A stretch of 64,000 nt of DNA from Amphiscolops sp. MND2022 (taxonomy: Eukaryota): the NCBI GenBank assembly GCA_964187785.1, contig OZ076409.1:47928001-47992000 (forward strand). The letters run 5' to 3'. Of this stretch, positions 23,450-61,800 are shown piece by piece. Below the pieces are notes generated by a model, which saw nothing but the letters and a program-made list of their open reading frames with translations, was not told the origin of the DNA and did no database searches. How positions within the stretch are numbered: the first letter of the stretch is position 1; each line of letters starts with the position of its first letter. The translations under genes and the position numbers were made by a program.

Positions 23450-23630
23450 ATCAGCCTTTTTTATTTTGAGCTCATATCCCATACGAAAAAAGAATTATCT
23501 TCCGACGCGTTATTTGCTCCAAATTTTCTCGTCTTTCATTTTGTTGTTCAAAACTAACGATTCTTCAACGACAAAACATTAGGTTCGTAGCGAGATTGAT
23601 TTTTTGAAAAACGTGCCTAAAATGGGAAGT

Positions 23631-26600: not shown

Positions 26601-26693
26601 CTTGTCTCGTGATTGGTATCTACGGGTTTAATTGAGTGGTAGTGGAGCAATCTTACGTATTGTTAAAGCTACCGTAATTCCAAAAATCTTACA
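23631..26693 (+). repeat. 5' LTR of element B (3063 bp)
   Basis: TGTAGG...CTTACA; repeat of 36058-39190 with many substitutions and small indels. Confidence 0.95.
25859..26123 (+). repeat. 29-bp minisatellite in the LTR (8 units of CAGGCTGAGTGGCCTACGAATACACCGAA)
   Basis: Counted directly; two units are extended by GTAGTTAGAAAACCCTA(CA). Confidence 0.93.
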
Positions 26694-26694
26694 T

Positions 26695-26712
26695 TGGCGC
26701 TCCTGGGTGGGC
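26695..26712 (+). promoter_or_regulatory. Primer-binding site, tRNA-Asn type (TGGCGCTCCTGGGTGGGC)
   Basis: 1 nt after the LTR end; complementary to the metazoan tRNA-Asn(GTT) 3' end as I recall it (...GCCCACCC(A/G)GG(A/G)(G/A)CGCCA). Confidence 0.8.
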
Positions 26713-26803
26713 CATCTTTGCGTCTTTGCTTTTACGCTTTCTTTCTATTATTTCTTTCCCTCTTCTTCCCTTCACCCTTCGCTGTTGCTGAACCCTTCCC
26801 CTG

Positions 26804-32890: not shown

Positions 32891-33276
32891 ACATCAGAGT
32901 CTTCGGATGATGGTCAGGTGAGTTGAGTCATCCGAAGTAAAAAAAGCTCATCATTCGCGTAGCTGTTCACGAGCATGCCTAAGCGAATTTTCGTGAGCTC
33001 GGACCGTTAGTTAGAAGGTGCTGAGTCATAACTGTAGCGTCACTGACGTCGCTACCGACTCCCCTTTGCTTTAACATACTTTGCTTCAACCTCCGCTTAA
33101 ACAGTCGCTTAAATAGAAACGTTGCAGTGTCAATTCCTGCAATCTATTCAACCGACCTTTGCCTCAAGTATTATTTATCGTTGTGATCGTCCAACTATTA
33201 ACCCGCTTACCTTATCTTTTTTCACTTCTAAATAGTTTATATCATCCGAATCTGGACTCGCTAGTATAGTCCTAGG

Positions 33277-35514
33277 ATGAAATGTTCTGTGTTTACTTTA
33301 GTTTTCTTCGCTCACTACGTTTCGGGAGGAGAAGACGCATTCGACCCATTCGAGTTCCAGAGGAGACTCAATCAACCAGGGTTTGTAAATGGCACTCATT
33401 CAATTTCTGGCACATTTCACTCATGAACCTCCCGTCGTGCTCGTTAAGTCGATCAAAACTATTTGGACATACATACCGTTTCCTCAAATCCCTCAGTTAG
33501 ATCCGGAACCGTTAAACGAAATCTTGGATAAAGCATTAGCTAGATTGGTGTCCCTCGACATACGCATGTTTTCACGGGAATGTGCAGACCCGCATTTGTT
33601 TAATTATTGGAAAGATTTTCTGCGCGATAATTTAGCGGAAATTTTTCAAAGCCACCGGATGTTTCAACACGACTGGCTGGCAATGCGAAAATTGCTCACC
33701 GTTTTTCTCAACCATACCGTAGACGATATCCCCCTAGAAAAACCGAATCGTTACGCTAGATCAATTGTCGGGGCCGGTGCAGGATCTATGTTGGGAAGTG
33801 AGTTAGCACATGTCTTCCTAAGACCGATATTTGGCCCCATACACGAGACGCTCTCCTGCTTCGTAGATGATTTGATCCCCTTTGGATCAGTGTGCCGGAG
33901 TAAAGAGAAAAAAAATATCGAGGATTTAGCTAGAGAAATTAAAATCCTGCAAGACGAAGTAGTATATTTAAGGTCGGAATTGTTAGAAGCTGTCACAGTG
34001 AGAATGCCGGCTGACGTCGGAAGCCGAGAGTTGCTAGCGTTAAAACAATCCCTAGACAAAAATATACAAATGTTGAACAGTACGGTAAATGGAGCGATCG
34101 ATGAGGTGTATGATTATGTAGAAAGGGCGGAATGCGTAGTCAAATTGACTCAAGACCGACACCGTAACACCTTAATAATGGCCACCGCGTTTCAAAATCT
34201 AACCGTGCAATATCGCCGGACCGTGAATGAGATCAATCAACGCCGCATCTCTCTGTCAAACATGGCGTCGATGTTACAAGAGGCCATGTCTTCTTTGGTC
34301 CAATTGGCTATCTGCCTATTTCTTTAATCCCGCCTGCAACGCTGAAAAAGATCCTTGATTCGTACCACGTCACCGGATTAAACGAGGCTTTTCCGAGGAA
34401 ATTGATTGCGGCGTACTATTCATTCGAAACTGTCAGAGATGCAAATGTTACGAACGATGGCTTGCATATGCTATTAGAAATCCCGATGTACGCCGGCCAC
34501 GGAATTCACGAGGTGTACCGTGCTACGACTATTCCAAATACGGAACGGGCAACGCAATACCAACTTGCGAAAACCCACTTACTAATGTCGTGGGATAAGA
34601 CGAATTTTGCGGAAGTCACTGAACAAGAGTTGTCGACGCATTGTTGGGGTTCCCATCGACTTAGGCTATGCAAGCAACCCTTATCGACTACTAAGTCGCA
34701 GAAAACAACATGTCTAACTGGCCTGTTCTTTAACCTTCCCGCCACCGTACTGAAACTGTGCGCTCAGGAGGTAGTGGCCCTTCCGCAACATCCCCAGGCC
34801 ATCTATTTAGATGACACCCCGTATTTATTGACGTCAGCGAAAGGGGATTTTACCATGCAAAACATGACTTCTACTGTGGATTATCGAGTACCAGGCTGTC
34901 AGAGCTGTCTAGTGAGACCTACTTGCGACGGAAGATTACAACTCCCCAATGCAGGTTTGTTTCTTACCCCGGACCCGATATCTTGCGCCGATAACCAAGT
35001 TAGCGAAATTGTCAGAATTATGCCGAATTCTTTATTGAGACCCCTGTTTGAAAATCTAAAAGAGTTAGAAGAAGTGATTCCTCCCTCCTTATTGGGAGAC
35101 GTACACCAAGAACTTTTGTCACACTTGAAATTAAACTTGGCAGGCTTGCCAGACAGGGCAATTACCGAAGAAATGCTAGATGCTATAGCTAAGCCCTTTT
35201 TAATCGAAGTAGAAAAAGTTCATTCGACTGTCTTAAAGAAAGTGTGGACAGATGTTATTTTACCGTGTGTTGTTACTCTGATTATTTTAACTTTCGTGGG
35301 AATTCTATGCTGGCTGGTAAAGAGGGGACAACTATGCATCATGCGTGCCTGTATACAACGACTGCTGAGAGGGGGAGACGAAGATGAACCAGAAGAACAA
35401 CGCTTGTCCAGAATTGCAGATGAGCTACAACAAATTCCTGCCTCCTCCCGAACCGATGGAAATGCGAAGACCCCTGATCTTCCCCAAGGAGAAAAGAAGC
35501 CCCGATCCAAGTAG
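33277..35514 (+). pseudogene. env: env (class I, baculovirus-F/errantivirus-like fusion glycoprotein), two frameshifts
   Basis: Signal-peptide-like MKCSVFTLVFFAHYVSG from 33277; RYAR|SIVGAGAG cleavage site and fusion peptide; heptad region; GYLPISLIPP; Cys-rich ectodomain; TM VILPCVVTLIILTFVGILCWLV. Confidence 0.85.
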
Positions 35515-36044
35515 TAATCTATTGAAAAGAGTGAGATTTTAACTCGATTGACGAGATATTAACCAAATTTTAACCCCCCTGTATTTATTTGCCCCAGGGA
35601 AAGGCTCGGAAAAACTATATTCCCTCGCTTGGACAGAAATTGAATATAGAACTACAAGTTTTAAGAGAATGAACCAGAAAACCCGGTCAGTAAAAGAGTC
35701 AACTATAATAGAAAATGATTGTTGTAAGTATATGCCACACTTCACTTTCCAAAATCTTACTTGGGACTGAAAAAGAAAGATTTAATTTTTTTCGTGCGTG
35801 AATAAAACTTGAAAAATGGGATCTGATAATGTTTTATGGGAATTTGAATTTAATTAAAAGAGAATTTACAAAGTGTGAAGTGATTTACTATTGTATTTCA
35901 AGCACTTGTTTACAAAATAACAAAATTAGTTGATGAAACACGGCTAAAAGTACAACCTGACTGGACAACGAATTATCCAATTAAAACCTCCCTAGCAATA
36001 GAATAAAATTTGAATAAACCAACCACTCAGGAGAGTAGTAGTCC

Positions 36045-36057
36045 AAGTAGGAGGGAA
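36045..36057 (+). promoter_or_regulatory. Polypurine tract of element B
   Basis: AAGTAGGAGGGAA immediately before the 3' LTR TG. Confidence 0.85.
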
Positions 36058-39000
36058 TGTAGGATTTTTGACTTTTTCGCCTAAAAACATGATGTTTATT
36101 AAATTTTATGCCCTCAGCAAGGTAGTTGATCCGGGTGTGATATATATAAACGTTAAGATAACAGTAAGTACTTTAAGTACCTCGCCTTATTGTTTAATGT
36201 CAATAATATTGTATTCCTTCTCGTTGACAACCAAAATAACTATTCGTAGCTGCATTGAAGCGACCGCGCAACGTATTAATGCAGTAATACGGCCGCCACC
36301 ACTCAGACCTATGTAGGAAAATTCTAATCGAAAAAAAACTTTGACATCGAATTTCTCGGCAACTATTACTAATACAAGAAAAATTAAACCACCGAAAGGT
36401 TCCTGTTTTACCTGACTACGTGTTGAGTAAACATTTAAGAACTTTAAACCAGCGTATTCTCACAAAAATTGAACCTAAAGTCATCATTGACTGAGAATAG
36501 AAATTCAGCCAAATTGCTATGGTAATACATGTGTTTGAGGGTAAGCGAGAGTGAAAACTCCGCCGTGTGCGTGAACAGCATAGAATGCAACTAAGCTAAG
36601 CGTGTCAGAAAGCGAAAGGAATGAAATTAAGAACGCGCTGTGAGTGGCTGTACGCATAGCTAATAAGAAAACGGCCGCCGCACACTTTGGAATTATCCCC
36701 TCTCCTAATGCAAATTAAAAATCAAAACGCGATTTCTCGAAGACGGAAAAAGATATCAACAAACGGTTTTCAGCATTCAACAGCCCGTTCAAAGGAGAGC
36801 TTAAGTTGAGAATATGAGCCCCGTGCAATGACGAGAACATATTGGGGGGAAGCTTTGAAAATAAGTGCGTATAAATTTTGACGATTTTCCAAAAATGAGT
36901 TTCCTTTAAAACTTTCGTGTGATCGCTACAGTTGTCAAAAAATGTTCGGATATGGCCTAAATTAAAGATAAATGAAAGTCCTAACGTGTGTCAAATGGAA
37001 AATAAATAATACTCGGTAGTTTTTGAGAACTGATCCAGCAAACGTTAAAAACAGCCCTAAAACGGCCAAATCAGCTGTTTTTCGCATGTTATCGCTTAGT
37101 ACTCAACGTGTAAGCGCACAATAGCCGCCCCTTCACAGCGTATTTGAGAATGGAAGTGGAGGAATGAATAGAATAATAAATTGAGTGCTGCGGCGCGCTA
37201 GCGAAGAACCCCCAAGAATCTAAAGTTGTGATTTCTTTCTGCCGATAGGGATGTCGACCTACCAAAATGCTAACACCCTGCACGTTTTTGGCAATATCGA
37301 GCTGAAATTTTCAGGGTAGACGCACAAGATCTATGCGCACAGCGTTTAGCGTGAGCGTTTTTCCGAAAAATGCCCTGGTTTTGAGATATTGACCTCCAAA
37401 TTTGAAAGTCTAGACATAAAAATCGGGAAAATGACTACTTTCAGAAAAAATGCTATCAAATTTTGTTGAGAAAAGATAGAGACCTCATCTAAAGTGCAAA
37501 ATACTCCTAATGGCTTGGGCTAACGATGTTTATAGGCCCCCAGGCCCCCAGCCTGTATCTTTCGAATTGACTGAGTACGAGCCCTCCAAAGTTGAGAGTT
37601 TTGCAAATGTCAACACGTGTTTTTTTACTACCAAACTTTAAGGGCGTTTTTCACCGTGAAGGAAGTGAAATAGAAAGACAAAGAACATAACGTTTTTGTA
37701 GCCCTTGACTTGTACTTTCAAATGGTGTACTTGGTTTTAGCCCCCGGTGATCGGAACACCTCGTTTTTGCTCTTAGAATGCGTAACACGAAAATCGACTT
37801 TTCAGGACATAAAATAAATTCGCCTTTTAGGTCATTGTAAATTGTAGAGAATTATTTCCTTCAGCCAGATTTAGCTGGAGAGTGGAGAGAGTTGTCAGGA
37901 ACCGCGTGAGAAAAAGAGACCTGGCGACAAGTGCAAATGTCAATCATTAAACCGAAGTAAAGTCGTATCTGTAAAAGTGGGAAAAACTGAGTCAGTAACA
38001 CCTCCCCTTAAATTCTATTGAAAACGAAGTAAAACCATCAGTCATGATTGACAAGGAGGTGGAATTAGGACAGACTCGTGATGAAAAAACGTACTTCCGA
38101 CGAATCTGCAGTACCGAAGTAGGGAAAAATGGTTTGCTCAACACTTAGCCCCAAAAAGGAAAGAGGACAATCTACGAATCCGTAAATGACTAACTGCCGA
38201 AAAAATAACTTTGGCCGAAGTGTGCGCCATTTTTAAGCACACAAAGTGAGTTGAAATCAAACGAACGGTTTGCTGCTTTGTGTCCGATAATTGAAATATC
38301 GTACAAAGGCTGAGTGGCCTACGAATACACCGAACAGGCTGAGTGGCCTACGAATACACCGGTAGTTAGAAAACCCTACAGGCTGAGTGGCCTACGAATA
38401 CACCGAACAGGCTGAGTGGCCTACGAATACACCGGTAGTTAGAAAACCCTACACAGGCTGAGTGGCCTACGAATACACCGAACAGGCTGAGTGGCCTACG
38501 AATACACCGGTAGTTAGAAAAACCCTACACAGGCTGAGTGGCCTACGAATACACCGAACAGGATGAGTGGCCTACGAATACACCGAACAGGCTGAGTGGC
38601 CTACGAATACACCGAACTTTTACTTCCACTCCAAGACCGATAGAGAAGATTTGCGGCGAGTATTAATTTATTCTCGATATCATCTAAGATATCACACCTC
38701 ATCTTCAAGGATACCTACTACCCTGCTGAAACCCATAACTATTACTGTCTAGTGCCCTATGCATTCTAAATTTCTTCGTAGCTATCTCCGTATTTATCGA
38801 TGTTATAATATTATTTATTCTATTGTTCGTGGATGTGAACTTGTACTAGTGTCTATTAATCGTCTTATTTATGTGTTGCATGTTAATTGACTTTTAACTG
38901 CTCTTTTCATTCATGAAAAGACCCCCGGCGTTTTCAACAGCCTAAGAGTAGCGAGACAAACCCCAGGCAGAAGTTAAAATCTCAAAGATAGTCAAAGAAC

Positions 39001-39190
39001 GTGATTTCCTAGTCACACTTACTCCCACCGTCTTCAGCTGTATTGATTCGTCTTTGCATTTGAAGTTAAAAGAAATTTATGTAGATACTCAGCCATTTCT
39101 TGTCTCGTGATTGGTACCTACGGGTTTAATTGAGTGGTAGTGGAGCAATCTTACGTATTGTTAAAGCTACCGTTGTTCCAAAAATCTTCA
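36058..39190 (+). repeat. 3' LTR of element B (3133 bp)
   Basis: Repeat of 23631-26693; ends ...CTTCA followed by the TSD. Confidence 0.95.
38306..38617 (+). repeat. 29-bp minisatellite in the 3' LTR (9 units)
   Basis: Same unit as 25859-26123 with one extra extended unit. Confidence 0.93.
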
Positions 39191-43800: not shown

Positions 43801-46800
43801 GTTTTCTTTTGTTTCAGATCTCAAGAGTTTCAACATTTCCTTTTGGGACTCGAGCAAAAGAGCCCTAATCTCGGACGTTATTTCTTCCTTCAGAGAGGAC
43901 CTTATGCTTTCCAAGAAACTAGTTTCTACTCTTGGGGACTTGGGTCTCGAGGGGCCCGCTAATTCTACGTTTTGATCTAAAGGATAAGAATTCTCCATAT
44001 TTATTGGCGATACAAAGCCTTCACTTACGTTATCATCAGCTTCTCGCTGGGTATTCTTTCTCTTTTGGCTTCGTGTTGTAGACATGTTGTTGAAGAAAGA
44101 TTTATTCTTGAAGAATTCAATTTTCACTTTCTGATTTTCAACAGAGTTAGAAGAATGAGAGTAGTTTGAGAACAGCGAGTTTGAAACAACTAAGTTGTAG
44201 CACTAGCAAAAGACTGAGTCCCTTAATCATCAAATCCTCTCATATTTATACCCTCCCAGCATCATTTGATCACGACTATAATCCCTAATTTTCCTCGAAC
44301 AATTAGTCATTTCCTGTTTTATCGATGAAAAATCACAAAGTTCCCAAATTTGCGTCAATATTCCGTCAATTTTTAAGACACGACAATTTTAATTTGGCGT
44401 TAGTCATCAAACACGATCATATCATTTCATCCCGGCGTCCTTTTGCTTCCTCCCAAGCAGGAAGTAGATATTACTTCAGTCTGTCAAACCGGAAATGCTT
44501 CCCTGTTTTACTGCTTTGGTTCGCGGGAAATTGACGCTGAGATGACGCTGACGTGAACAACAAATACTTGATTTTGAAATTCGGAATGATCAAAATGCTA
44601 TGACTAATTCCAAAGCGTAATTATTTGAACGATGCTAAGACGATGGTTTATGAATTTGGACTCATCCTTTCGTTGGAAATAGAATTAAAAATATGGTATT
44701 AAAATAATACACCATTAGTAAATTTGTCAAGTCGTGACAACTGCGACAAGTTTTACAAAATTAACAGCAACGTTTGTTAAACAGCAACGACAACGCAACG
44801 CATTTAATGGATAGCAACAAATGAATTAGTATGAAAAATATGATCTTGGTCATAAATATAGCGTTCAATATCGCAGAGTACAAAATGCGAAGTATATGAA
44901 AATACATTTTCAGTACAAAATATACTTTAGTTGAATGCATAAACTGTGACTTTCTGATTACTTTACTATGAATTCTCATAGAGGAAGAAATAGTTTATAT
45001 AAGGGAATTTCCTTGTTCATGAAAAATGCAAGACGAATCAATTAACGTGGATTTGAACTATCCTATATGTGTCAAAGCTGCTTTATGTTGGTGCCTTATG
45101 TTATAGGAATGTCGCATCTACACTTATTTTACGAATTGAAATAGCCTGCAATCATTTTCTTTTAGCATAATAGCAACTTTAGTGCGATGAAACCTTAACT
45201 GATCTTGCAAATTCATCCATTTTGCTCAATCTCATAAACTTGGCAGCGTCGTGTTGACGAGTTTTCTTGGTAGAATAGAGATTTTGACTAGTTTGACGCA
45301 ATGCTGACGAGTATTTTAGAAATGAGTCTCTCGCTAGCTGCCGGAGCACTGACGTCACAGTGGCGGTAAATTGGAATGATTTCTAGCAATGCTATTAGTA
45401 TAGGCGGATAATTGGAATGATTTGCTGGTACGCGTATGCGAGGCAGTGACGTCAATTGGTATACCTTCAAACTTGTCTGCGTCTTACTGACGACAAATAT
45501 ACATGTATTCTTATTTTCCCCGCTGCCTTGTTTACTCAGCGTGATATTAACGTCCTAAACTACACTAATTGCTGTTCAAAACGCAATTAAGCTGTCTTTC
45601 TGAGAAAAGGCTTAATTCTATCGGTGTGTCATCTCAGAGTATTTTTCATTTTAGATCTGATTGATGTTCTTTTGGGAGATGATTTTAATTATGTTTTCAT
45701 TTAGATTGGGCTATGGTTACCTTATTTTGAAGCGTGTTTTAATTTAGTTTTCAGGTGACGAATGTTATTGATTTGACGTGGCAAAAGCGTCTCAACCGGA
45801 AATGTAAAAATCATTTTAGCGCGCTCATTCTTTGTAATTAGATTCATTTGAAATTCCCGTTGACCGGACGTATTTTTGTTTTCTTAGTCACAGTTTATTT
45901 GTTAGTTTTAATAGTTAAAGTAAGTCTTTTCGAACCTTGCGGTGCAGCCGTGGCCTTTCCCGAAGCCAACTCTTAAACACTCACAACCCAGTCCGGGAGC
46001 GGACTGTGACAGGGCCACTGTCATCGGTCTTATCGTCCTCCCTGGGAACCTCGGCTGGTAGAAAGGGTATTGTAGTTCGTAGACATTAGAGTCAACTGCT
46101 TTGTCCCTGGATGGAGGCATTACCGCCGGGCCCCTTTCTTCATCTAGATCGTTTAGAGATTCTTTTCCCTGCTCTCCCCAAACTCTCAGAGGGCCGCGGG
46201 GGGAATTAAAATAGGAGCGTGCATCATCCTCCGTTGCTTGTCTTATGAATTCAGCGACTTTACTGCTAGTCATGGAGGACATTTCTTCTTCGCAAGGTTT
46301 CTCTACTACAAACACGTCTGAGTTCAACGAGGGGTCAGGGCTTTCTGGCGTGTCCGCAATTTCCTCTTCGCTTTCTGACTGAGGGTATTGTCCCGATTCA
46401 TTTGTTTCAAAACTCGTGTAAGATTCACTGAGCTTCATTCTCTTACACTCGGTTTCTAGCGAATTTAAGGAGAGGTCTAGAAATTCTTCTTCATCTGCTG
46501 TGGCTTCTGCTGACGAGTTTAATATCTCCACTATTATTTTTGGGTATTTCTCGTTATTTTTTGGCAGAGGGGTAGAGGATCTTGTGATTTCTCCATCTTC
46601 TTCACTTGACGACGAGATGTCGATTAGTTCATATATGTCCATTAAATTGCTCATCTTCTTTGTTTGACTTTTCTTCTGTGACTGTTGATCGTATTTTAAT
46701 AGTTCCACAATGAATTTCAGCTTAATTAGGAATAAGGAAGGTATTGGAATAATCCCTCCATTTTGATTGACTGTTCAATCATTTTAATCCTTTTTAATCT

Positions 46801-49800
46801 TCAGATGTTGACGTTATGTCGACATCGTATTTTATCGGCTGTAAATTGAAATAATTTACTTGGCCAAATTTGTCAACGTTATGCTGACGTCATTTTCGTT
46901 AGTTTAGCTAACTTTTGATTTTGTCACCGTTTTGATGACGTCATTTTAGGATATAGGATTAATTTCTTAACCCTGATAACCTTTTTGTCGACGTTATGCC
47001 GACGTCAATTTCGTTGGTAATTAGCCAACTTTTATTTTTGTCACCGTTATGATGACTTCGATTTGGTCGTTGTTTTTGTTTCTCCTCCTTTTCAGATTGC
47101 TGTTGAAAGAAAAAAAATGATGTCGTCTCGTCGAGTTGAATCTGGTTTCCAGAGTGGCCACGAGACGCAGTTTGTCTTCTCCGACGGAGACATTCAGGAA
47201 AGTGATGTTGATCCCCGCAGTCGACCAGCCCTTGGTAAATCTTTATCTCGCTTTCCATTAAGTTTTTGCGAAATATACTTTCAACAGTTAGGCATTTCCT
47301 GTTTTGTATTTTCACAGCTTAGATTTTCTGACGCGTCAAATTTTGGGAAATGTTGTTTCAGGGTCTGTTCTACCTGGTTCTCTTGCTGGGGATCCTGTGG
47401 TTCTTCCCGGACTTTCCTTGCCCACTGGTCTCGCTGCTGTCGGACCTGTAAATTCCTCTGTTCCTGACGTTCCTGTTGGAGGTGCTGTGCCTGCTATTGG
47501 CGAAGTTTCTGTCCCTTGTCAGGAGGATCTTGACATTCCATTGTCGAAGTTGATTCCTCTGTCCGCTCGTCCTCATGTAGGTGAGGGTGATCCCCCCACT
47601 GAGAAAGAGAAAACCACTACTGGGCAAACTCCTAAAACTGTTGGCTCGGAGGTGCATAAAACGCCTTCACCGCGGTTTTCGTCTTTCCTCACTGAATGTC
47701 GAGAGAATCCTGAAGAGCAGGCGGAGGGTCCACTGGGTGAGTAACTTTTTCCTTGCTTTTGTTTTTCTTTTTTTTTGTTCGAGACTTGTGAGATTTGTGT
47801 CTTGGTATTACTGGGTTTGTCATGTTTGTGGTCATAAATATTGGGTGACTTGTGTATAGGTTCAGCGTTAGTTCGTGGTGAGGAACCCTGTACACAGAGC
47901 TCATCGCGGTGTCTGCGTACCCGAAGTCATGATAAGGTTCCTGTTGTAAAGGCAGCTTCACGAGTTCTGCGATTTGAGCTGGATAGTAGTGACAGTGATG
48001 CTACTGACACACCAGCTTTGCCGTGTACTCCCCGACAGGCACTGAGGCTGGGCGAAATATTGGCCTCTGAATTGGAACATCGGACGATGGAACCTCTTGT
48101 CACCCGTTAGTGTACTTTGTGCTTGTAGCGTAGTGTAGTGGGGGGGGGGGGTTTGATAATATCCGTTTGGTAGTTGCATGTTGGTTAGCGTTATATTATA
48201 GGTGTGTGCACTTTCCACGGTTCCAGGAACTTGTGGCGCGGGTGGAGACGAGTTTGGAAGGAGTTCCGGGTCCACAGCGTCAGCGCAAACGGGTATATAG
48301 TCCCCGTAATCGTCTTCGCCGCGACATGGTTGGTGACAACCCCATTTATCAGCTATTTGTCAGTGGTTCAAGTACAGGGTCAGACAAGTTGTTCTTTTGC
48401 AAAATTTGTCATCGGGATGTGTCGATGGAGTCACGTGGGGCATCAGAGTTCGCCCGCCATTTCTTTGGTAAGCGTCATTGGCAATTGGACATGACGTATC
48501 GTGTGCAACATGACCTCCCTGTCTTCAATCGTCTTATGGACCCTCTGGAGTTAAATGAGACTCAAGTTGCTGATTTCATGGGTCGTCCAAGCAAGGGGTT
48601 GGCTGAAGGTTTCAGTTTCTCCGAAGATCTTCTTCCTGCCTGTACCCGCGTGGACTCATCCGTTCCGCTGATGACTATGATCAATAGTGTCTTGGAACTG
48701 TTTCGTTGTGGGGGGAGCTATACCCTGTTGAGGAAGTTGTGGGGAAGTTTCCGAGCTACTCTGGGTCCTGAAGTACCCTTGTTCAGCCTGAAATGGGACC
48801 GAGCCGAGACTTTGGTAAGATGTTTTATGCATTTTATAACTTTCGTGTATACTTGTGTTCATGGTTCTGTGGTTGTGGTAGGGGCATTTATTCCTATTGC
48901 TTTGAAGATCTTGTGATGTTTTAGTCGTTGATTTGTCAAGCCTTGTTTCCTCGAGTGTTGGGGTTACTTGTGTCTCGGATCTCATCTTTCCGGGAGTATA
49001 GTGTCTTCTTCCTTGAGAATGCTGCAACCCAGGCGTGTTTTGTCCATACTTGGGATGATGATGCCTTGTTCTCTGTGTGTATCCGTGTGGAGTCTGCTGG
49101 TCAACGTGTACCTACTGCCGAGTTGGCCGGGCTGTCCCGTGTTATTGACAGTGTGCCTTCTTGTCAACTGCCTCTGTCGTGTCAAGGCGGTAGTGCATCG
49201 TTGTTGCGTGTTTTGAACGACAATCGCATCGATGGGCGACAGTTTCTGTATTGTCGTGAATTCACTGATGATGATTTCCTGCGCGGGTATCGCCAGGCGG
49301 AGCGAGAGATCTTCGGCAAGCTTGATGTCACTTCCATGATCGATTTATTGGTGTTGCGCTTGCGAGGTGCTCTTCAGGAGTCATGGATGGAAGAAACACC
49401 CACTCTTCGTCGCTGTGTACTTGCTGGTCGCGTGACATTTGCACATTTGTGTCTAGTGGCAACAGAGCTTGTGGCCCACTGGAAGATTGTGCGAGAGTTT
49501 GTGCGATTTACGGGTCCTGGACAGGCTAGATGTGAAGTCGATAAGGTAAGTTCTTCTTGACTTGTTATGAGAGTAAGAAGTGAGAACATGATCTTCATGG
49601 TTTGTCTTGTTGGTTCGGATAGTAGGGGGTGTTTCATATTTTGTATTGACGTACATTTAGGATTTTGTTTATTTGTAGATGCGAGGATTGGACTGGCTGG
49701 TGAGCAGTGACACTACAAGCGTTTTGCGGCTCGGCCTTCTTTGTCACGTACTTGATCTCTGTGAGTTTCACCTTATCTGCGTTTTGTCAAACATTTAATG

Positions 49801-52800
49801 TTTTGTTGTCTTTATGTCGGCGTCTTCATTTAGTTGTCATTTTGTTGTCATAATTTTTGTTGCGGAAATGTACTGATATGTTGTTGTGTTTCAGATGCTG
49901 TTTCTTTCAAAAAACGGAGTGCTGGACGAAGTGACTACAGATTTCATTTCTATATGGGGTTGAGTCAGTTCGTTTATGGGTTATTGTCTCGCAGTCGTAA
50001 GAGTGCGTCGTTGCCCCCATTGAACTCGTGTGACGATTACATGGATTCTGCTAAAGTTGCTGATCTGGATAGAGTATCATCTGACGATTTTCTTGCAAAC
50101 TACGAGTTTGGAGCTACCTTGCAGAGTTTCAAGGGTGGTGAATCGCGTGAGTTTCGTCGTCAGTGTCCTGCATTTATTGATCGTTTTGTGGATGTCATTC
50201 TTGCTCAATATCCTGCATCTTCGGATTTCTTGCGTTATACTTATTGTTTCTGCCCTGAGTTGTTGTTAGAAGGTGGAGACGAGTATATCTTTGGCCTCTT
50301 CAATGATCTTGTTGCGTTGCTGAGACGATGTAAAGTGCTGAGTGATGCTGAAGCTAGTTCTGCCACAGAGGAGTTTTTGTCATTTGTCGTGGATGTTCGT
50401 GTTCGGCATGTTAGCAGTGGTCGTAGTGCAGAAGAAATTGTCGATGTAGTGTCATTTTTAATATCTGATTATGGCTTCTTGGCTCGCAAAAACTTGTGTC
50501 GGACATTCAAGTTATGTTGTCTAGTACTTGTGCAGCCCCAGCAGAATTTCCCTGCAGTCGACATTGATCTGTCTAATTGTGCCTTGCCCAAGCTTGTAGT
50601 GTCGTCCTGTGTCCGTGGTGTGCAGAGTTGCGTACTGTCGGCGAATTATAAGCAGAAGTCGTTTTTTACCAAGCATACCATGGAATGTGTTCGCGATGCT
50701 ATTGTTGGTTCGCATGCCTTTATGTCTCTTGCTGAGCTCGATCCATGGGAGAGGATTTGCAGTGGAGGGCAAAGTGGATTTTTGAGTCGCTACACCTCTT
50801 TGTTTGATGCTTATTTGGCACAGAAAAAGGATGAGGCATATTATCGTCTGCGTGCTGCGAATCAGCGTGATAGTCGATCGCGGTCTGCTGGTCATTCGGA
50901 TGCAACAGTTATGACGTGTTCGGAGAGTGGTGAATCCTCTGTTGTTAGTGCGAATGCTGTCACTCAGGTGGTAGTGGGACAAGTTCTGGTCGTCCCAGCA
51001 AGGTGAAAAAATATAGCAGTCTGGCTTCATTACTTGGTCGGAAAAGAGACGCAAAGGAGACAGCCGGCACTGTGACAAAGAAGAGTAAGAAGGAGTCTGT
51101 CAATTCTGTGGGCGCAAGTGGTGCTTCCTCATCAAAAAAACATTGAAACTATTTACTGCATTCCAAACTTTTGATGTGTTTGTTGATTTATTCTGCATTT
51201 GTTGTTTCCTTCGGGCAGTTAATTGTAGTGTTAGCATTCTTCAGTAACGTCATAGATGGCGTAGAAAGAAAAAACCAGTAAAAAGAAGGAGTCGTGGATT
51301 TTGAATAAAAGGGAGAAAGGCCGTAGTATGCCTTGATTTGTAATTTGTCAGATCGGTTCGGTCTGGACTCCTGATATTATCTTTTTCTTTTTTAATGAGT
51401 CGTAGTCATAGCGTCAATTCGTCTGAAGTCAGGATTAGCATTAGGTTTAGGATTAGGTCTCAAATTGCACTTTGTTGTTTGTTTCGGGTTATATCCGACA
51501 ACTGTATGCGGTGTTCTTGGGGGAATAGGTGGGCTTTCAAGGGGTGGGGGGCGGCGTATGTATGGGTTATCTCCCACGTCCGTAGTAAGATTTGAAAAAT
51601 CCGGAGACGGCAGTGCCTCGTCATTTGTGTCATCAGTTTGGTTTCTTGGCTTTTGAGACGTCGTGTCTTCGTCATTCGTATTTGTCACTTCTTGTATTTC
51701 TGTGTGTCGGTTGTTTTCTGTACTTTTTGATGTTTCGTGTTCATCAATCTGTTTCCCGAAATCCATTTCCCACGATCTCGCGTACCACTCGTTGTGTGAC
51801 ACTTTGACGTCTGGATCGGGAAGATATTCATTTGCTCGTACTGTGACGTCAGGCACGCGTTGCTCTGGCACGTAAGGTCGTATGCGAATTCTGTGTAGTG
51901 TTTGTGTATATCGCGTGCCGATTTTTCGTATCGTGTAATTTTTATTTGAGAGCACTTTGGTTACTATGTACGGTCCCGTCCAGATGCAATCTTGGAATGC
52001 AAATTTTGTCGATTGATTGTCAGCTTTTGGATTGAGGATATAACAATAGTCATTTATCTTGAGCGGGGCTGCCGACGCTTTGCGGTCGTAATATTTTTTG
52101 TATTTGAGGTAAGACAGCATGATGTTGTCTTTCGCTGTCGCTCGCACTTCGTCAATTTGTTTTTGTAGTTGCTCTGCTATGTCCCAGTTGGGCGTAGTTT
52201 TCCACTTTGGCTTGATGCCCAATTTTAAGTCGAGAACATTGTAGGGTATACGTCCGTGGAATACTGTAAATGGTTCGCATCCTGGGGTTTCCTGGTACGT
52301 CGTATTGTAATTCATGACTGCAATTTGGACGTATTTGTGCCACATTGAACGTCTTTCACCCGTCGATATTTTTAGTGCAGTCTTGATTGAGGCGTGTGTT
52401 CTTTTTAGAATTCCGATTGTTTGTGCGTGTTTTGTGGACGCATGGCTGATTTGAATTTCAAGGATTTGCGTTATTTCTGCGACGACTTCTGATCTGAATT
52501 GTGATCCTTTGTCTGACAAAGTTAAAGTTGGCAGATATGCATGTCTGGTCATGACGTCGACAATGCATCGTCCGATTGTTTTCGCAGTGGCATTCTGCGT
52601 CGGGTATGCGAATAGGTAACGTGAGAACACATCGATCATTGTGACAATGTTCTGATATCCTGCAGAGTTTGGTAGGTTTGGCAGTGTGTCGATTTCGAGT
52701 ATATCTTCTGGTCCCAATACGTGTTCTGTGTTGTTGATCATCTTCGGTCGGATTTGGCTATTGTTGATTCTTTTGTATTTGATGCAGTCTTCACATTGCA

Positions 52801-55800
52801 TCACCCACTGTCTGATTCTTTTTGCTAAGCCAGGGTAGTAGTATTTTGATCGGCATTCTTGGATCATTTTTGTGATCCCTGGGTGTTTTCCCATTTGTCC
52901 ATGGATTGCTTTCAGAAGTTCTGTAATCAAGTGTTCGGGAATTAGTATTTGATTGTGTGTAATTTGACCGCATTCTCCGTAGTATTTGCGCATTAGTACT
53001 CCGTCTTTGACTATGAGTCTATTTTCGTGTACCAAGAGGCGCTTGGCTTTCGGATCTGTTTGTAAGAGGTGTTTGTCGTATTCTTCACAGATCAGTTTTC
53101 TTTTGATTGCTTTGAAAACTAAATCTGAATCTTGTTCAACTCTAATGCGTGCATCTTCTTTGATTGCCCCAAAGGTGTATGATGCCTTGTTTATTGGGAT
53201 TGGGGTTGTTTCTTTTTTTTGACAGCTTCATTTTCGTCGTCTCTTCATCTCGTGCATTTTGTCTTGCTTGTTCTTTTTGTAGGAGGATTTCCTCTTCTGT
53301 TTCAATCGTTTCCTCTGGGAGGAAAAAGAGTTGTTCTTCATCTGCGACGTCTGTCGATTGAAGGTTTACTTGTATTGGTTGGATCGTAATGTCGTTTCGG
53401 ATTTTTAGTTCAACTTTTTCTTTAGGGTTAAGGTCAATTCTCGATAAGAAATCAGCAGCAGTGTTTTGCGTCCCGGCTACATGCATGATGTGAAAATTGA
53501 ACTGTAGTACGTAGTCGCATGCGTTCCATAGTGTAGGGGGAATCGCTTTTGTTTGAAAAATCTTGTTACTGATCTGTTGTCGGTCATTACAAGAGTTGGT
53601 AGGGTTGTTTCCCACAATATGTGACTGTATTCTAAAAATGCGTGGTAGATTGCCAGAAAATCTTTGCAATAAATTGACATCTTCAGTTGTGCTGGTGAAA
53701 ATACTTTTGATCCAAATGCTACCGGCGCAAAAGTTTTCTTTTTGGAGTTGAGTTTTTTGTCATTTTCTTCTTCGATCATTAGCGCATATCCTGAGGCGCG
53801 AAAACTAGCATCCGTCATTAGGACGTATTGTCGTCCTGTGATTGGTTGTTTGAGGGCTAGTCCACATGCTTCCGCTAGTGCTGCGTTGAAGTGGTCTAGC
53901 AGTTCTTCTGTGACTTTGATTTGTTTGTCGGCTTTCAGTAGTTCGTAGAAGCCGAGTAATTTTTCTGACTACCGCGGAATGTAGTTGCGGTAGTAGTTGA
54001 CAAAGCCTATGTATCTCTGTACCTGTTTCTTCGATTTCGGGAATCGTACATTTGCTAAGAATTTCTGGATTTTGTGGTCTTGGGGGGCGATTCCTTGTGG
54101 GGTGATCGTTCTTCCAAGGAATTCGATCTCGGTTACTCCAAAGTGGCATTTGTCGATGGATAATTTGAGTCCTGCTTGTCTGATGCATTCGAAAACAGCT
54201 CGTATGTTCTGTATCAGTTGCGTCACGGAGTTTGCAGCTATTCCAATGTCGTCTACATATTGCGCGCACTGGTCAGCCTTGATTACCTTGTCTAAATATT
54301 CTCTCATGAAACTAGAGAATGCCGACAAAGCTCTGCTCAGTCCTTGTGCCAGTCGTTTGTAGGCGAACGTCCTGCTTGCGAAGTTGACCGCTAGCATTTC
54401 AATTGATCTCTGGTCTGCCATTTGTAGGCAGTGGTATGCTTGGGAGCAATCTAATTTACAGAACAGCTTTTTCCCAGCTAAGTGTTGGGCTGCGTCCGAC
54501 AGGGTACTGACTGGGTGGTTGTTGTTGATATAGTCGTCGGATATCAGTGCATTGATTTTTCGTAGGTCGACGAGTAGACGTAGTTTACCATTTGGTTTAC
54601 GTTGTGCAAAAATTGGACTGGCATATTTTGAAAATGGTAATGTCGTTATTATGCCGAAAAAATTGCATGAGTGCCAGTTCGACTGTTAGGTCTTCTTTGA
54701 GGTTAATCGGTACTGGTAGGCTTTGCGTGTATATGGGGCGTTCGTCTTTTGGTGTCAGTTTCACTTTGAAGCTATTATTAATGCCGATGGCGAGTCTGTG
54801 ACGTGCAAAGATGTCATTGTATTCAACTATCGTTTGTTCTAATTGTTTCTTGTCCTTGCCTTCAATTTGTGATCCTTCCCATTTGAACATGTCGAGAAAC
54901 TCTTTTCTTGAATCTGGATCTTTGGTGGGGTCAAGTTGTTCTTTCTTGATGAGTTCTCTGATTTCTTTTAATATTCGTCTTTGTATTGGTGTGTGTTCAT
55001 CCTCATTTCCTGGGTTTTCGGGTGTTGGGAACCAGAGGTTCTCGTCATTTTGTTCGTTGTTGGTGGATTTCATGAGCTCATTTACATACATGTGCGTATC
55101 ATCTGGATCTCGTAGGGTGGTCAGTGTTGCGACGTCTATAGGTCGTATTTGTTTTGTGTCTTCTGGCTTCAGAATTTGCAATTCTGCCAACTTGGTATGG
55201 TTTTTTATGGTGTGCGGGAAATCTGTCAAGTTGGCTATTCGTAAATTGGTTCGTTTGTTGTGAGCTGTGGCTAGTGCTGGTGCGACGATGATGGTGGCTG
55301 TTTCATCGAACTGTTGTAGCGATTGTACTGCTCCTGTGATGTAGATTGCGTTGGTGGTGATAACTATTGCATTTACAGTTGTTGTTTGTTGTGGAGGCAG
55401 TGTCTGGTTCCCTTCAGCCATGATTTGAAGCGGTTTGGGGTTACAGTTTTTCTTTTCATCTGTCATGGCTAATGTCATTTCGACATGGGGGAAGGTGATG
55501 GTCCTATTGGCTGTATCTATTACTGCTTGGTGATTTCTCATGAAGTTCAGTCCAATTATGGGGAATGAGGTCTTTGATAGTATGACAAAGGTGTCAGTGA
55601 ACGTGTATGTTCCGATATTGAATTGGATATCGGCTGTGGCGATAGGTTGTTCCAGTTGTGCGTTTGCACATTCAATTTTGAAGGGAGGTTGTGGGTACTC
55701 CTTTCTGACGCAATTATCGCTGTTCATTTTAATGGCGTTGTAATCAGACCATGACATGGCATTGATGAACGCTCCTGAGTCGACGAGGCCGTCCATAGTT

Positions 55801-58800
55801 AGTTCTCCAAATTCCAGTGGTAAGTAAAGCATTCGTCTTCTGTTCTTGAGGACTATTGTTGAGTGGAGCGGTATGTAGGTATCTCCGTCTCTTTCAGTTA
55901 TGTACTCTTTGATTGAGTTGAGTGCGATGGGGAAGTTCTTATGGAAGGCAGATGTCGTGGTGGTTTTGTGCATAACTTCCTCGGTCGTTTGTGACGTGAG
56001 GTTGTCGTCGGGGGCGTTTTCATTGTTGTCTGTTTGAGTTGTAGTAGAGAGTTCTTTGGTGTTGGTGGTTGGCTGAGAAAATGGGTTTGTGTGATTTTGA
56101 TGATCGCTTCTGTAATCTTGATCTTGGAGGAATGTTGTTTTCTGACCTTTTTCTGGTGGTGGTCTCTTAATGGAGGCGATGGCTTGTTGTCTCAGCCAAT
56201 TTTCTGCTGGAGTATCAGTGCATCTTGTTGTTGTATCGGTTGTGTATATGGTAGGGGGGTCTTCTGGTGAATACGCCCTCGCGTCTACTGTTTCCCCAAA
56301 GCGCAGGCGCGGCGTAATTAGTTTTTTGATTCATCTTCTGGTTGGTTCATTGGTTGTGTGGCAGAGGTGTCCAACTTACGTTCTTGTGTGTTGTGACGCT
56401 TGGGTCGTGGATCGTTGGCAGCATTAGCTCCATTCCAACAATCCTCTGTTTTGTGTGGTTTGCCGCAGGTGTCGCATTTGGGTGGTTTGCCTGCACTGTG
56501 GTTGCTCGGCCCGTTGTTTCTGCGGGTTTGCATCCATTTGTCCCTTTTCATTTTTCGGCATTCAGCTTTATAATGTCCGACTTTATTACAGTAAAAGCAG
56601 TACCCTTTTTTGGTGGTCTGAGCGGTGGTTTCCGCTGGTTTGGGTTCAGTTTTTGTTTGAGCGGGTTCGATTTTGTTCAGGGGTACTAACGTTACCTCAT
56701 CTGGTGCTCCTAGTCCATTGAGACGCATTTCTCTCTCTAGGTGGAGTACTATGTCGTTATAGGGTTTGTCTTCGAGGTATGCGCGGTTTAGTATTTTCTT
56801 GACATGATCTGGCATTTTGGCGTATATAGCCTTGTCTATGAACTGCTGCGCCTCTGATCCATAGGCTTCTTTTGCAGTTTTCTGGAGTACATCCTACGTT
56901 TTGATCTAAAGGATAAGAATTCTCCATATTTATTGGCGATACAAAGCCTTCATCATCAGCTTCTGATGAAAGGATAAGAATTCTCCATATTTATTGGCGA
57001 TACAAAGCCTTCATCATCAGCCGTTATCATCAGCTTCTCGCTGGGTATTCTTTCTCTTTTGGCTTCGTGTTGTAGACATGTTGTTGAAGAAAGATTTATT
57101 CTTGAAGAATTCAACTTTCACTTTCTGATTTTCAACAGAGTTAGAAGAATGAGAGTAGTTTGAGAACAGCGAGTTTGAAACAACTAAGTTGTAGCACTAG
57201 CAAAAGACTGAGTCCTTTAATCATCAAATCCTCTCATATTTATACCCTCCCAGCATCATTTGATCACGACTATAATCCCTGATTTTGCTCGAACAATTAG
57301 TCATTTCCTGTTTTATCGATGAAAAATCACAAAGTTCCCAAATTTGCGTCAATATTCCGTCAATTTTTAAGACACGACAATTTTAATTTGGCGTTAGTCA
57401 TCAAACACGATCATATCATTTCATCCCGGCGTCCTTTTGCTTCCTCCCAAGCAGAAAGTAGATATTACTTCAGTCTGTCAAACCGGAAATGCTTCCCTGT
57501 TTTACTGCTTTGGTTCGCGGGAAATTGACGCTGAGATGACGCTGACGTGAACAACAAATACTTGATTTTGAAATTCGGAATGATCAAAATGCTATGACTA
57601 ATTCCAAAGCGTAATTATTTGAACGATGCTAAGACGATGGTTTATGAATTTGGACTCATCCTTTTGTTGGAAATAGAATTAAAAATATGGTATTAAAATA
57701 ATACACCATTAGTAAATTTGTCAAGTCGTGACAACTGCGACAAGTTTTACAAAATTAACAGCAACGTTTGTTAATTAGCAACGACAACGCAACGCATTTA
57801 ATGGATAGCAACAAATGAATTAGTATGAAAAATATGATCTTGGTCATAAATATAGCGTTCAATATCGCAGAGTACAAAATGCGAAGTATATGAAAATACA
57901 TTTTTAGTACAAAATATACTTTAGTTGAATGCATAAACTGTGACTTTCTGATTACTTTACTATGAACTCTCATAGAGGAAGAAATAGTTTATATAAGGGA
58001 ATTTCCTTGTTGATGAAAAATGCAAGACGAATCAATTAACGTGGATTTGAACTATCCTATATGTGTCAAAGCTGCTTTATGTTGGTGCCTTATGTTATAG
58101 GAATGTCGCATCTACACTTATTTTACGAATTGAAATAGCCTGCAATCATTTTCTTTTAGCATAATAGCAACTTTAGTGCGATGAAACCTTAACTGATCTT
58201 GCAAATTCATCCATTTTGCTCAATCTCATAAACTTGGCAGCGTCGTGTTGACGAGTTTTCTTGGCAAAATTTAAGCTTCATAAACTTGTCAACGTCATGT
58301 TGACGAGTTTTCTTGGCAGAATAGAGATTTTGACTAGTTTGACGCAATGCTGACGAGTATTTTAGAAATGAGTCTCTCGCTAGCTGCCGGAGCAGTGACG
58401 TCACAGTGGCGGTAACTTGGAATGATTTCTAGCAATGCTATTAGTATAGGCGGATAATTGGAATGATTTGCTGGTACGCGTATGCGAGGCAGTGACGTCA
58501 ATTGGTATACCTTCAAACTTGTCTGCGTCTTACTGACGACAAATATACATGTATTCTTATTTTCTCCGCTGCCTTGTTTACTCAGCGTGATATTAACGTC
58601 CTAAACTACACTAATTGCTGTTCAAAACGCAATTAAGCTGTCTTTCTAGGAAAAGGCTTAATTCTATCGGTGTGTCATCTCAGAGTATTTTTCATTTTAG
58701 ATCTGATTGATGTTCTTTTGGGAGATGATTTTAATTATGTTTTCATTTAGATTGGGCTATGGTTACCTTATTTTGAAGCGTGTTTTAATTTAGTTTTCAG

Positions 58801-61800
58801 GTGGCGGATGTAATTGATTTGACGTGGCAAAAGCGTCTCAACCGGAAATGTAAAAATCATTTTAGCGCGCTCATTCTTTGTAATTAGTTTCATTTGAAAT
58901 TCCCGTTGACCGGACGTATTTATGTTTTCTTAGTCACAGTTTATTTGTTAGTTTTAATAGTTAAAGTAAGTCTTTTCGAACCTTGCGGTGCAGCCGTGGC
59001 CTCTCCCGAAGCCAACTCTTAAACACCCACAACCCAGTCCGGGAGCGGACTGTGACAACTACTATTAAATTTTTGATTGAATATTGAAACATTTGCCTCA
59101 ATAGTTCTTCAAGGAACTGCTGATGCGATCTTTAGACTTTTTCAAACAGTGAACCCACAAGTTCTATGATCTCATTGTATTTTGTGGAATAAGAAATAAA
59201 TTGAGGTTTCGAAATCAATAGAAAACTCACGATGCCTCGCAAATGAATGATCATTGCTCCTCATTTCTGCATTTGTAAGCTTCTTGAAGCCTTTTCCGCC
59301 GCAAAAAGCGTTTTCTATAAAAATTGGTTTCTCGCACACAAAAGTCAGCAAAAAACATGGAATACCTGATGCAGTCATGATCCATGACGTCATGATGGTG
59401 ATGGTGGTGAGGGTGCGAGTGGGTGTGGTAGTGGGGATGTGATGAGCCTCCAGCTGTCCCGGGCACGAAACCGGCCTGTTCGGGCATGCCACTTCCTCCC
59501 CCACTGCCCTTGATGGCTGGCAAGCTAATCGATGATTGTGATAAAATTTGGTTCTTCTGCGTCCCAAAATTCTGGTCGGGGGGAGAACTCGGGGTGTGAC
59601 TTCTGCTTCCTGCAATTACTTGTTTAGTTATTCAACCATAGGGAACAATTGAGAAAAAAAAGATGCTAAAGGTATTTGGTATAATAGGAAAATCAAGCAC
59701 AGCCATAATATTATAAGTTATAGTTTTGCCTATAAGCTATGAAGAAAGTCCGTCTCTTTGGAAAAGCAAAATGAATATACAAACGCAATATACGTTATAA
59801 CGTTCTTGCAATTTACAATGACATCATTTTGAAAAAAGTGGCATTATCTTCGTTTGCCCATCTGTTGTATTTAGAGCCTTTCTTGATGTTGAAAAGTCGA
59901 GGAGACGGTTCTCAAATTCAATTAAATACAAAATGACTGTAGGAAAAGGCCAGTTAAGTAAATGAAATACAACGCTGCTTTTATCAAAAAGTCAAAAAAA
60001 TGGCTCTTGGATATATTTCGGTTCAATGTTCTTCTAGAAACCGTTTTTTGTGCGGGTAATTTAAGTACTCACCATTACCTCTAAAATTGCCAAAGGATTA
60101 GAAGATGTTGGCAGGGTGTAAAAAGGGTGTGTATGGGAGGTAAAAATTGAAATGAACTAAAACAGAGGGATAACTCACCGTGATTAAGCTGCGAGGGATG
60201 AGGAAAAGGTGGCGAGAGAGGGTATTCGTAGGAGTATGGTCTCTGAGAGATGGGCTGTTCGATTATGTGGCTAGTGGAGCCCGCTAGAGGCATGTACCGT
60301 CCTCCCCCGCCCCCGCCTCCATGGCCGACTGAGCCCTGGGAGTGAGTAGCCGATGCATTTTGGTCCACCGTCTTGAAACCTTTGTAAATTAAAATACAAC
60401 CAATTACTTGAGATATAATAAATCACAATATCATCCATTCAATGAAGATTCATTTCGATTGTGGGATTATCGATTGTAGAATACATGATCGCTAAATCGG
60501 GGAAAAAGACAAACTATCAACTTAAATGGACCGGTATACAACGATAAAGAAAACCAAACTCTGAAACTTTTTTCTTTGACTATTTAGTTTTGCCGGTGAA
60601 TGGAACAAGCTTCGAAAGGAAAACTTTTCATACTTTCTCAAGACTATCACTCGAATAAGCCCATGGTTTTGAAAATTAATAAAACTATCAAATTCGGGCA
60701 ACAATAATGGATCCAACAATGGGTCTCCATGTGAAGTATGCACCCTGAACTGACCTATTTCGGGGGGTTGAGAAGATAGCTGTGGGGGGTTGAATTCATG
60801 ACAAGCAGTCTCAGGTCTGGAAGCGCTGCTGTTGTTCACACTGTAAATATTTGACTGGGTGTAAAATGGCGAGTTTAGGGCAGCAGCATACCCAGGGCCG
60901 TTCATCATGTTACCTGTGTTGGGGCCCTGCATTGGTTGTCGGGCGGCATTGTTATCGCCCCCTCCCCCTAACCGGCTGATTCCTTGTAAAGTCCTAACAG
61001 CAGGGTTTCCTCATATTGCATTGCAATCAGGTTATTTTTGTCCAAAAATATAAGTTTTCGAATGTCAAACATCATTGGCTCGTGTCATCGCCACTTATTG
61101 ATTCCGACCAAAGGTCAAACCTAGGAAAGCTAGGTGTCAACAACTCGCCGAAAACAGCTCGTCGAAATTAAAGGGCGGAAAACTTGTCGAAAAGTAACTT
61201 GCCGAAAACTCGTCTATTACGAAAGTAAACTATCCTCAGTCGAGCAGGTAGCTGATTCAGCCATTGCGAATTAGGAATAGACAATTAAGAGTCTAGGAGG
61301 ACAGGCATTAGAACTTATTACTTTTGATTGACAAAGCTGTTGATTTTCAAAACCACTTTTTCAATTGCGTTGAAGTAGAAAGTGAGCATGTAGAAAACAT
61401 GCATTGATTTTCGAAAGCACAGCAACAACAACCAACTGAAACTTGCGTCAACCTTAAACAACGTTAAACTTAGTAAATACAAGTTGAAAAAGCCACCCAT
61501 GAACATATAACCCCGCACGAATCAAAACTGACAGGGAAGCCGGAGTACCGAACGCAATGAAACAGGGAATATCGCCAACGCTTTCATGCAGTTCAAAACA
61601 TTTGCCCGTAGGCAGGTTCTCAGAAATTCCGAAAGATTACCGTATCACACCCTTTTTGTGGTACCGCAATGGGTTCAAATTTTTAACTTACGGAGATATA
61701 TTTTCAAGGAGGACATTTTTAGAAGTTGCACTTTGACATTGTCTGAAAGCTGCAGAGACAAAGTACTGATAGTCTTCGTTGAGTCCTTCATTTTTGTAGC

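Follow-up and report, generated by a model that had tools for sequence, protein, structure and literature searches.

The 64,000-bp window analysed here (positions 47,928,001 to 47,992,000 of contig OZ076409.1, Amphiscolops sp. MND2022) contains three long terminal repeat (LTR) retrotransposons, designated elements A, B and C, all with the pol order of Ty3/gypsy elements. In addition to gag and pol, elements A and C possess an accessory gene with the opposite orientation, situated between pol and the 3′ LTR, and its product appears to derive from a transposase of the hAT type. The antisense gene has four to six introns and converges with pol, about 240 bp separating their stop codons.

Element C (43979..59057, minus strand) is a decayed LTR retrotransposon, assigned to Ty3/gypsy by homology. 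Its 3′ LTR (43979-46011) and 5′ LTR (56969-59057) are 96% identical, and its pol (51395..56330, minus strand), coding for protease, reverse transcriptase (RT), RNase H and integrase, has three frameshifts and one stop in comparison with element A. The antisense gene lies on the plus strand and has seven coding exons. Exon 1 (47117..47234), with a start codon at 47117 or 47120, is followed by a phase-1 intron, exon 2 (47362..47736) codes for an N-terminal low-complexity region and exon 3 (47860..48105) is followed by an intron matching one of the D type, a further lineage described below, in both position and phase. The acceptor of this intron, which ends at 48218, is broken in the decayed window copy and intact in all six sister copies checked. 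Exon 4 (48219..48814) codes for a putative BED-type C2H2 zinc finger (48395-48478) and then helices, and exon 5 (48925..49545) for RNase H-like strands without conserved catalytic aspartates and the beginning of a helical insertion. This insertion continues beyond the 82-nt exon 6 (49679..49760) into exon 7 (49895..51146), which also codes for a C-terminal hAT-like region and a basic tail, and which has a frameshift near 50963 in the window copy.

Element A (7143..23449, minus strand) is a young Ty3/gypsy copy with open gag and pol. It has paired LTRs of 1846 bp that are 99.95% identical, a 5-bp target duplication, the domain order protease-RT-RNase H-integrase and a primer site starting with TGG. 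Its antisense gene (10644..15033, plus strand) gives an open model of 1278 amino acids with exons 10644-10659, 10861-12815, 12885-13370, 13475-13609, 13720-13801 and 13871-15033, the finger being encoded at 12351-12434.

Using a spliced aligner written for the purpose, 66 copies of the gene were modelled, namely the two in the window and 64 fetched from the genome assembly. Full models were obtained for 64 (22 A-type, 34 C-type and 8 D-type), with L113 and L116 dropped as partial, and 37 of these are free of any stop or frameshift. Splicing is predicted from comparison of the copies, in which intron positions are constant and intron lengths and sequences variable, as is the behaviour of real introns.

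The original prediction, made from the letters of the window, held that A and C carry a homologous antisense gene at the same place with conserved intron positions. The two spliced proteins do align, with 21.4% identity over 749 amino acids (blastp, E 1.8e-34), and their local alignment score of 368 compares with a maximum of 64 in 200 shuffles. The described divergence of the two elements was also apparent: no significant DNA similarity was found between their LTRs (best E 0.52) and the Gag proteins are 35% identical over 165 amino acids. With a core identity of 22%, the accessory proteins are indeed far more diverged than RT (87%); the corresponding values for RNase H, integrase and protease are 58, 57 and 40%.

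Of three introns proposed to coincide, the two around the 82-nt exon (13720-13801 in A, 49679-49760 in C), one of phase 0 and one of phase 1, are exactly common to both genes, and this exon measures 82 nt in 50 of the 53 modelled copies having it. The first shared intron is of phase 0 in both, but its position is probably one codon off, as that of A lies one codon 3′ of that of C when a conserved E-x-L...Q stretch is aligned without gaps, a reading supported by the intronless D type. Alternatively, there is possibly a one-residue indel at the junction, with the position being the same. The intron at 13371-13474, said to be absent from C, is present in all 22 A-type models, the C type having one read-through exon of about 207 codons there. 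The extra 5′ introns of C (47235-47361, 47737-47859 and 48106-48218) are kept in sister copies; however, such introns are not unique to C, as A has one of its own (10660-10860) after a first coding exon of 16 nt.

Within the first C-type intron (47235-47361), a stretch of about 100 nt is conserved across families with proteins only about 60% identical, and was present in six of the eight loci checked (L046, L050, L065, L066, L086 and L094). It is possibly a promoter of ORF-X, the second extra open reading frame (ORF) described below, or an RNA signal. The end of the first intron of A is likewise conserved. Local rearrangements were also seen: in L066 (region 2240-2600) the 5′ part of the gene contains an inverted duplication, and in L091 a portion of the gene is duplicated in tandem.

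Distribution and fold of the antisense gene

The gene is clade-wide in this genome (assembly of 1.07 Gb), where it forms three lineages, A, C and the new lineage D. Searches with single proteins gave at least 60-125 scored matches per query, with identities down to about 50% for C and 25-40% for foreign queries. Among 1.8 billion proteins, the profile built from the last exon matched 1017 clusters (50% identity). No Pfam family was identified at E 0.001 for the 35 relatives tested, nor a name for the 10 looked up. Two of the proteins (P0126 and P0063) reach only 29% and 40% identity in this genome, so the family extends to other sources. The D type was found among these profile matches, its region from the finger to the end being one open frame. 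For one D-type protein (P0192) this genome has a locus with 100% identity, and another (P0127) aligns with both C (E 1e-66) and A (E 1e-15).

RT and integrase lie directly behind the gene, on the other strand, in 59 of the 64 fetched loci; pol is present as fragments in three and absent from two. When elements were chosen by integrase alone, as an even-step sample from 150 integrase matches, all 20 were found to carry the gene antisense; as these are all D-type, the test covers one lineage. Large internal pol deletions were seen in L041 and L045, the accessory gene being kept in both and unbroken in the latter. In L112 and L126-L129 (G000:C1:35413622-35435621 and C2:29314837-29334836), an open accessory gene accompanied by the pol tail only lies in a repeated unit of at least about 20 kb. 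The unit holding L112 is 98-99% identical between two places, and no LTRs, gag or RT were present in the fetched DNA. L113 and L114 have the accessory gene without RT or integrase in the fetched DNA, and the introns of L114 are up to 1 kb long.

A hAT transposase fold, overlooked in the original prediction, became visible through the D type, whose lack of introns made folding of the protein possible. In the AlphaFold2 model of P0192 (95-row alignment), with a predicted local distance difference test (pLDDT) value of 88.9, the finger is built as strand-strand-helix; the other parts are a helical segment, a sheet of RNase H-like type and a long insertion made of helices. A Foldseek search of the PDB with this model puts Hermes transposase at ranks 1-10 (best E 2.7e-4). 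With VIA-align, Hermes is the sole chain among 48161 with Z of at least 8 (Z 12.9, 405 aligned, root-mean-square deviation 5.4, model residues 149-649), the next having Z 6.1. The best match in the viral library BFVD is a hAT-domain protein (E 4.7e-4), and the atlas neighbours of the last exon of A are hAT-dimerisation and FAM200-like proteins (0.91-0.94, a weak recognition). The finger lies outside the VIA-aligned range, and its four zinc ligands (Cys/His) are kept in 68-69 of 69 aligned rows. The N-terminus of the protein is 16% D+E and 19-25% S+T, and its tail is 18-22% K+R.

The catalytic residues of Hermes are numbered D180, D248 and E572 (PMC2533014). With positions taken from predicted strands and spacing, the 69 rows have no conserved Asp at the first and second sites, no conserved Glu at the third and no CxxH motif. 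The first inferred site is E in 24 rows, V in 17, L in 7 and Q in 7, with no D among the six commonest residues; the second has Q, S or R before a conserved G; and the third region has D in 22 rows, A in 17 and V in 9. Its clade-wide presence, exon structure, hAT-like fold, kept finger, lack of a conserved DDE triad and purifying selection (see below) together argue that the gene is very probably a catalytically dead hAT transposase taken up by the retrotransposon, as judged from the modelled structure.

A number of points weigh against this interpretation. The catalytic positions were placed by predicted strands and motif spacing and not by residue-level superposition. Pfam scans were blank for P0192, P0181 and the 35 relatives, with neither Dimer_Tnp_hAT nor zf-BED (PF02892) over threshold, although a control hAT ORF (L098) does match a Pfam hAT family. 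Profile searches of PDB sequences found nothing, the profile had no match in 15 ORFs from hAT loci of this genome (best E 0.02) and hhalign gave a probability below 1% against the hAT ORFs of the genome, so no donor family was found. There was no usable atlas match for the whole of P0192, the Foldseek template modelling (TM) scores are only about 0.3 and a Z of 12.9 is near the level reachable by chance for mostly helical models. The folded protein is also of the D type and not A or C; a single-sequence fold of the last exon of A was of low confidence (pLDDT 37.6), and no longer homologues of this exon were found.

Intron loss, selection and module exchange

Intron gain or loss inside a retroelement had been proposed for this gene, and loss can be directly seen. 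The three core introns shared by A and C are absent in D (8 of 8 models, and none in the core of 20 further D-type copies). Four 5′ introns are retained in D (8 of 8); the last of them agrees with a C intron in position and phase and is absent from A. Barring parallel gain at identical sites, the shared introns missing in D or A imply at least one loss under any root. In 3 of the 34 C-type copies (L088, L090 and L091), divided by the pol tree between two distinct branches, the 3′-most intron is precisely absent; read-through at this intron is also found in the A-like protein P0049. Such loss of neighbouring 3′ introns, those at the 5′ end being spared, is what an established model, recombination with a reverse-transcribed spliced message, predicts. 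From comparison of the copies, introns appear to have been lost inside the elements repeatedly, precisely and with a 3′ bias.

The pol tree has 49 rows (L041, L045 and L059 left out) and the accessory tree, like the comparison of the two, has 48 (L091 also out); L112-L125, fetched later, are in neither. Both trees recover lineages A, C and D as one group each (pol, Shimodaira-Hasegawa-like approximate likelihood ratio test 100; accessory gene, support 0.99-1.0), which, with the ratio of nonsynonymous to synonymous divergence (dN/dS) far below 1, agrees with the view of an old, selected gene of one retrotransposon clade. Element B was no informative root for the pol tree, giving an outgroup branch of 4.7 and supports of 37-70, and this rooting was left aside. 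Patristic distances for pol and the accessory gene correlate (Spearman 0.77), and 11 of the 31 well-supported accessory splits are found in the pol tree. The vertical inheritance originally suggested thus applies between lineages but not within them, where pol and the accessory gene are swapped. For L066 and L095, dS of pol is 0.22 and dN of the accessory gene is 0.34 with saturated dS, while L078 and L079 are discordant in the opposite direction (pol dN 0.19, accessory dS 0.23). These sequences indicate that modules are shuffled inside lineages by exchange of pol and the accessory gene, which accounts for part of the excess accessory divergence.

dN/dS was estimated by pairwise counting for 28 accessory pairs, 14 of which were saturated at synonymous sites. 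The ratio is 0.05-0.09 in 13 of the 14 measurable pairs and 0.39 in one very recent pair, with 0.01-0.08 for pol. Selection on the accessory gene is purifying, with no sign of positive selection at pairwise resolution. Compared with pol, the gene is under somewhat weaker constraint, and it is often older than the neighbouring pol. The suggestion of fast evolution, in keeping with a conflict or specificity role, was not borne out, nor was positive selection in the zinc finger: in 24 of the 28 pairs no other part has a lower dN than the finger, in 4 the finger is as diverged as other parts, and no region has dN/dS above 1 in any pair with measurable dS.

Flanking features and remainder of the window

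Element C has a second extra ORF, the acidic ORF-X (45911..46654, minus strand), which lies on the gag-pol strand, ends inside the 3′ LTR and belongs to no Pfam family. The ORF-X of A (8903..9646, minus strand) is not alignable with that of C (blastp E 3.0). Across the A, C and D lineages (e.g., L078-L092), ORF-X is 170-290 amino acids long, acidic and Ser-rich, has Cys near its end and runs into the 3′ LTR. The divergent spacer between the antisense gene and ORF-X in C (46660..47116) is a candidate internal two-way promoter, possessing repeated short motifs typical of the C type. Upstream of the gene of A, an 11-nt motif (10313..10323, plus strand) was identified as a candidate cis element; it is present in 15 of 22 A-type and all 8 D-type loci and in none of the 34 C-type loci, which have other upstream repeats instead. 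Co-variation of finger residues with the upstream repeats was rejected within C.

The Gag start codon of A (22195) is located inside the 5′ LTR, so that the reading frame crosses the LTR end and the primer site. No purine-rich tract adjoins the 3′ LTR on the element strand in A (8989-9008) or in C (46012-46031), and plus-strand priming of both elements may therefore be unusual. No env-like ORF was found in the antisense-gene region of A or C. Element B (23624..39188, plus strand) is a distant gypsy element with 3.1-kb LTRs containing 29/73-nt tandem repeats and has no hAT-like antisense gene. Its sense ORFs 3′ of pol (33389-35511) are env-like: one part resembles a coiled coil, and a single hydrophobic segment lies at the C-terminus. 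The window also holds a near-perfect 366-bp palindrome (41641-42003, 96.7%), possibly a miniature inverted-repeat element, and a tandem array (3273-4076) with units of 176-185 nt that are about 77% alike.

Possible roles and known counterparts

It is proposed that a hAT transposase of the Hermes/Ac type may have been captured once, reversed and as intron-bearing DNA, by an ancestor of this Ty3/gypsy clade. It would subsequently have lost its catalytic residues and would be kept as an accessory protein by purifying selection. Transcription of the antisense gene would start at an internal promoter close to the 3′ LTR. Its introns would withstand retrotransposition since they run backwards in the genomic RNA, in which state they should be unspliceable; occasional loss would occur when reverse transcription recombines with the spliced message. 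The protein may be a nuclear, sequence-specific DNA-binding factor acting in trans on its own element family. Its most likely role would be that of an activator or anti-silencing factor of its own element, to which about even odds are given. The complete interpretation, that the clade domesticated a transposase with its introns as a trans-activator or anti-silencer, swaps it as a module and shows repeated, precise, 3′-biased intron loss, is assigned a probability of roughly 0.45. With regard to this role, no binding site came to light, the repeated motifs of C-type promoters stay in place where the likely contact residues of the finger change, and no result here separates an activator from other nuclear roles.

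A dead hAT protein could instead serve as an integration helper, by binding cDNA ends or the target, tethering integrase or carrying the pre-integration complex into the nucleus. Retention of the whole end-binding transposase body beyond the finger would suit this role, as would the basic tail, the nuclear-import roles proposed for plant antisense ORFs (PMC7264820) and the absence in A and C of a purine-rich tract at the 3′ LTR, given which cDNA handling may be unusual. Such a helper is nevertheless considered unlikely. Free swapping of the gene between pol variants in a lineage is more easily squared with a factor acting in trans than with a close partner of integrase, copies whose pol is deleted or missing (L041, the L045 region, L112 and L114) keep the gene open, and the long acidic N-terminus suits transcription. 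The abundance of hAT transposons in the genome (150 scored matches to PF05699), the large diversity of the family with its 1017 clusters, and the few pairs in which the finger is as diverged as the remainder (4 of 28) would be in keeping with a counter-defence decoy, corresponding to the conflict factor of the original prediction and poisoning host hAT-derived repressors or competing hAT transposases via protein contact. A decoy appears quite improbable, however, as selection is purifying throughout with no region of dN/dS above 1, the DNA-binding finger is the most conserved part and there is no sequence likeness to the sampled hAT proteins of the genome.

Self-restraint, whereby the protein or the convergent antisense transcript would repress the element and limit its copy number, is also regarded as distinctly improbable. 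Repressors do occur among domesticated hAT proteins and the transcript heads towards the end of pol. Antisense RNA control has, in addition, been discussed for such ORFs (PMC7264820). Nevertheless, the very numerous carriers (at least 60-125 scored matches per query) are a poor fit to a pure brake, and constraint at the protein level implies that RNA is not the sole product. There is very little likelihood that the gene is a passenger, namely a nested hAT transposon, or a still-active nuclease with an unusual active site. The kept transposase architecture, the loci without RT or integrase in the fetched DNA (L112-L114), that of L112 lying in its large repeated unit, and one imperfect inverted pair (77%) bracketing the gene of A could be read in this manner. 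Against this, position and orientation are fixed in three deep lineages, the catalytic residues are not conserved and no bracketing inverted repeat is common to A, C and D among the five longest pairs per region in four regions. L112, furthermore, keeps a pol tail beside the gene and thus derives from a retroelement.

Like the hAT transposases, as exemplified by Hermes (PDB 8edg, 4d1q and 2bw3), the product has a putative BED-type finger, followed in order by a helical segment of dimerisation-like type, strands resembling RNase H, a helical insertion and a C-terminal return. It differs from them in being 10-12% identical, with no Pfam match, no conserved DDE/CxxH and a long acidic N-terminus, and its gene sits inside an LTR retrotransposon and moves with that element. 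The BED domains of Hermes bind short subterminal repeats of their own element (PMC10368747). Transposases are described as activating their own elements, domesticated ones as losing the DDE triad and dead derivatives as being transcription factors (bioRxiv 10.64898/2026.08.24.746577).

The plant Ty3/gypsy elements Retand, Grande and RIRE2 (TRP28/PF04195) likewise have a lineage-wide antisense ORF between pol and 3′ LTR, with a product that is thought to bind DNA (PMC7264820, PMC11963269). The antisense gene of Grande has its own promoter and a nuclear product, and the origin of the plant ORFs is described as unknown, with no similarity to other transposons (PMC7264820). Unlike these, the gene here codes for a predicted whole class II transposase fold, which gives a probable origin, and has four to six introns, the word "intron" being absent from the available text of PMC11963269; TRP28 (PF04195) gave no match in Pfam scans of the gene. 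Accessory proteins have also been found by structure in Arabidopsis (PMC13547354). Retroviral antisense genes (HTLV-1 HBZ) and the ORF3s of bdelloid LTR elements (DEDDy, GDSL) have unrelated folds, and the captured enzymes of the bdelloid elements (PMC5408684), unlike the protein here, keep their catalytic residues.

VANC, Spm TnpA and domesticated dead transposases (FAR1/MUG) are similar in being DNA-binding, transposase-derived or accessory proteins that act without catalysis on cognate elements or genes. Their owner is a DNA transposon or the host, whereas here it is a retrotransposon and the activity is predicted. In contrast to the VANC/TnpA type, the C-type sequences gave no sign of a finger and target motif co-evolving fast. 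Among domesticated transposases, DAYSLEEPER is hAT-derived. In the open literature, as far as available and with subscription papers, supplements and Repbase-type databases outside its scope, no report was found of a spliced gene with a whole hAT transposase fold in an LTR retrotransposon. Plants are the main source of known antisense extra ORFs in LTR retrotransposons, and the present case offers both a probable origin, in a class II transposase visible by fold only, and a testable role. If true, it would carry transposase domestication beyond hosts into another class of transposon. With many copies, intron-bearing and intron-free lineages and precise losses of single introns, these elements are a natural test bed for RT-mediated intron loss. 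The gene is a form of the antisense accessory ORF already known, its probable origin being unexpected.

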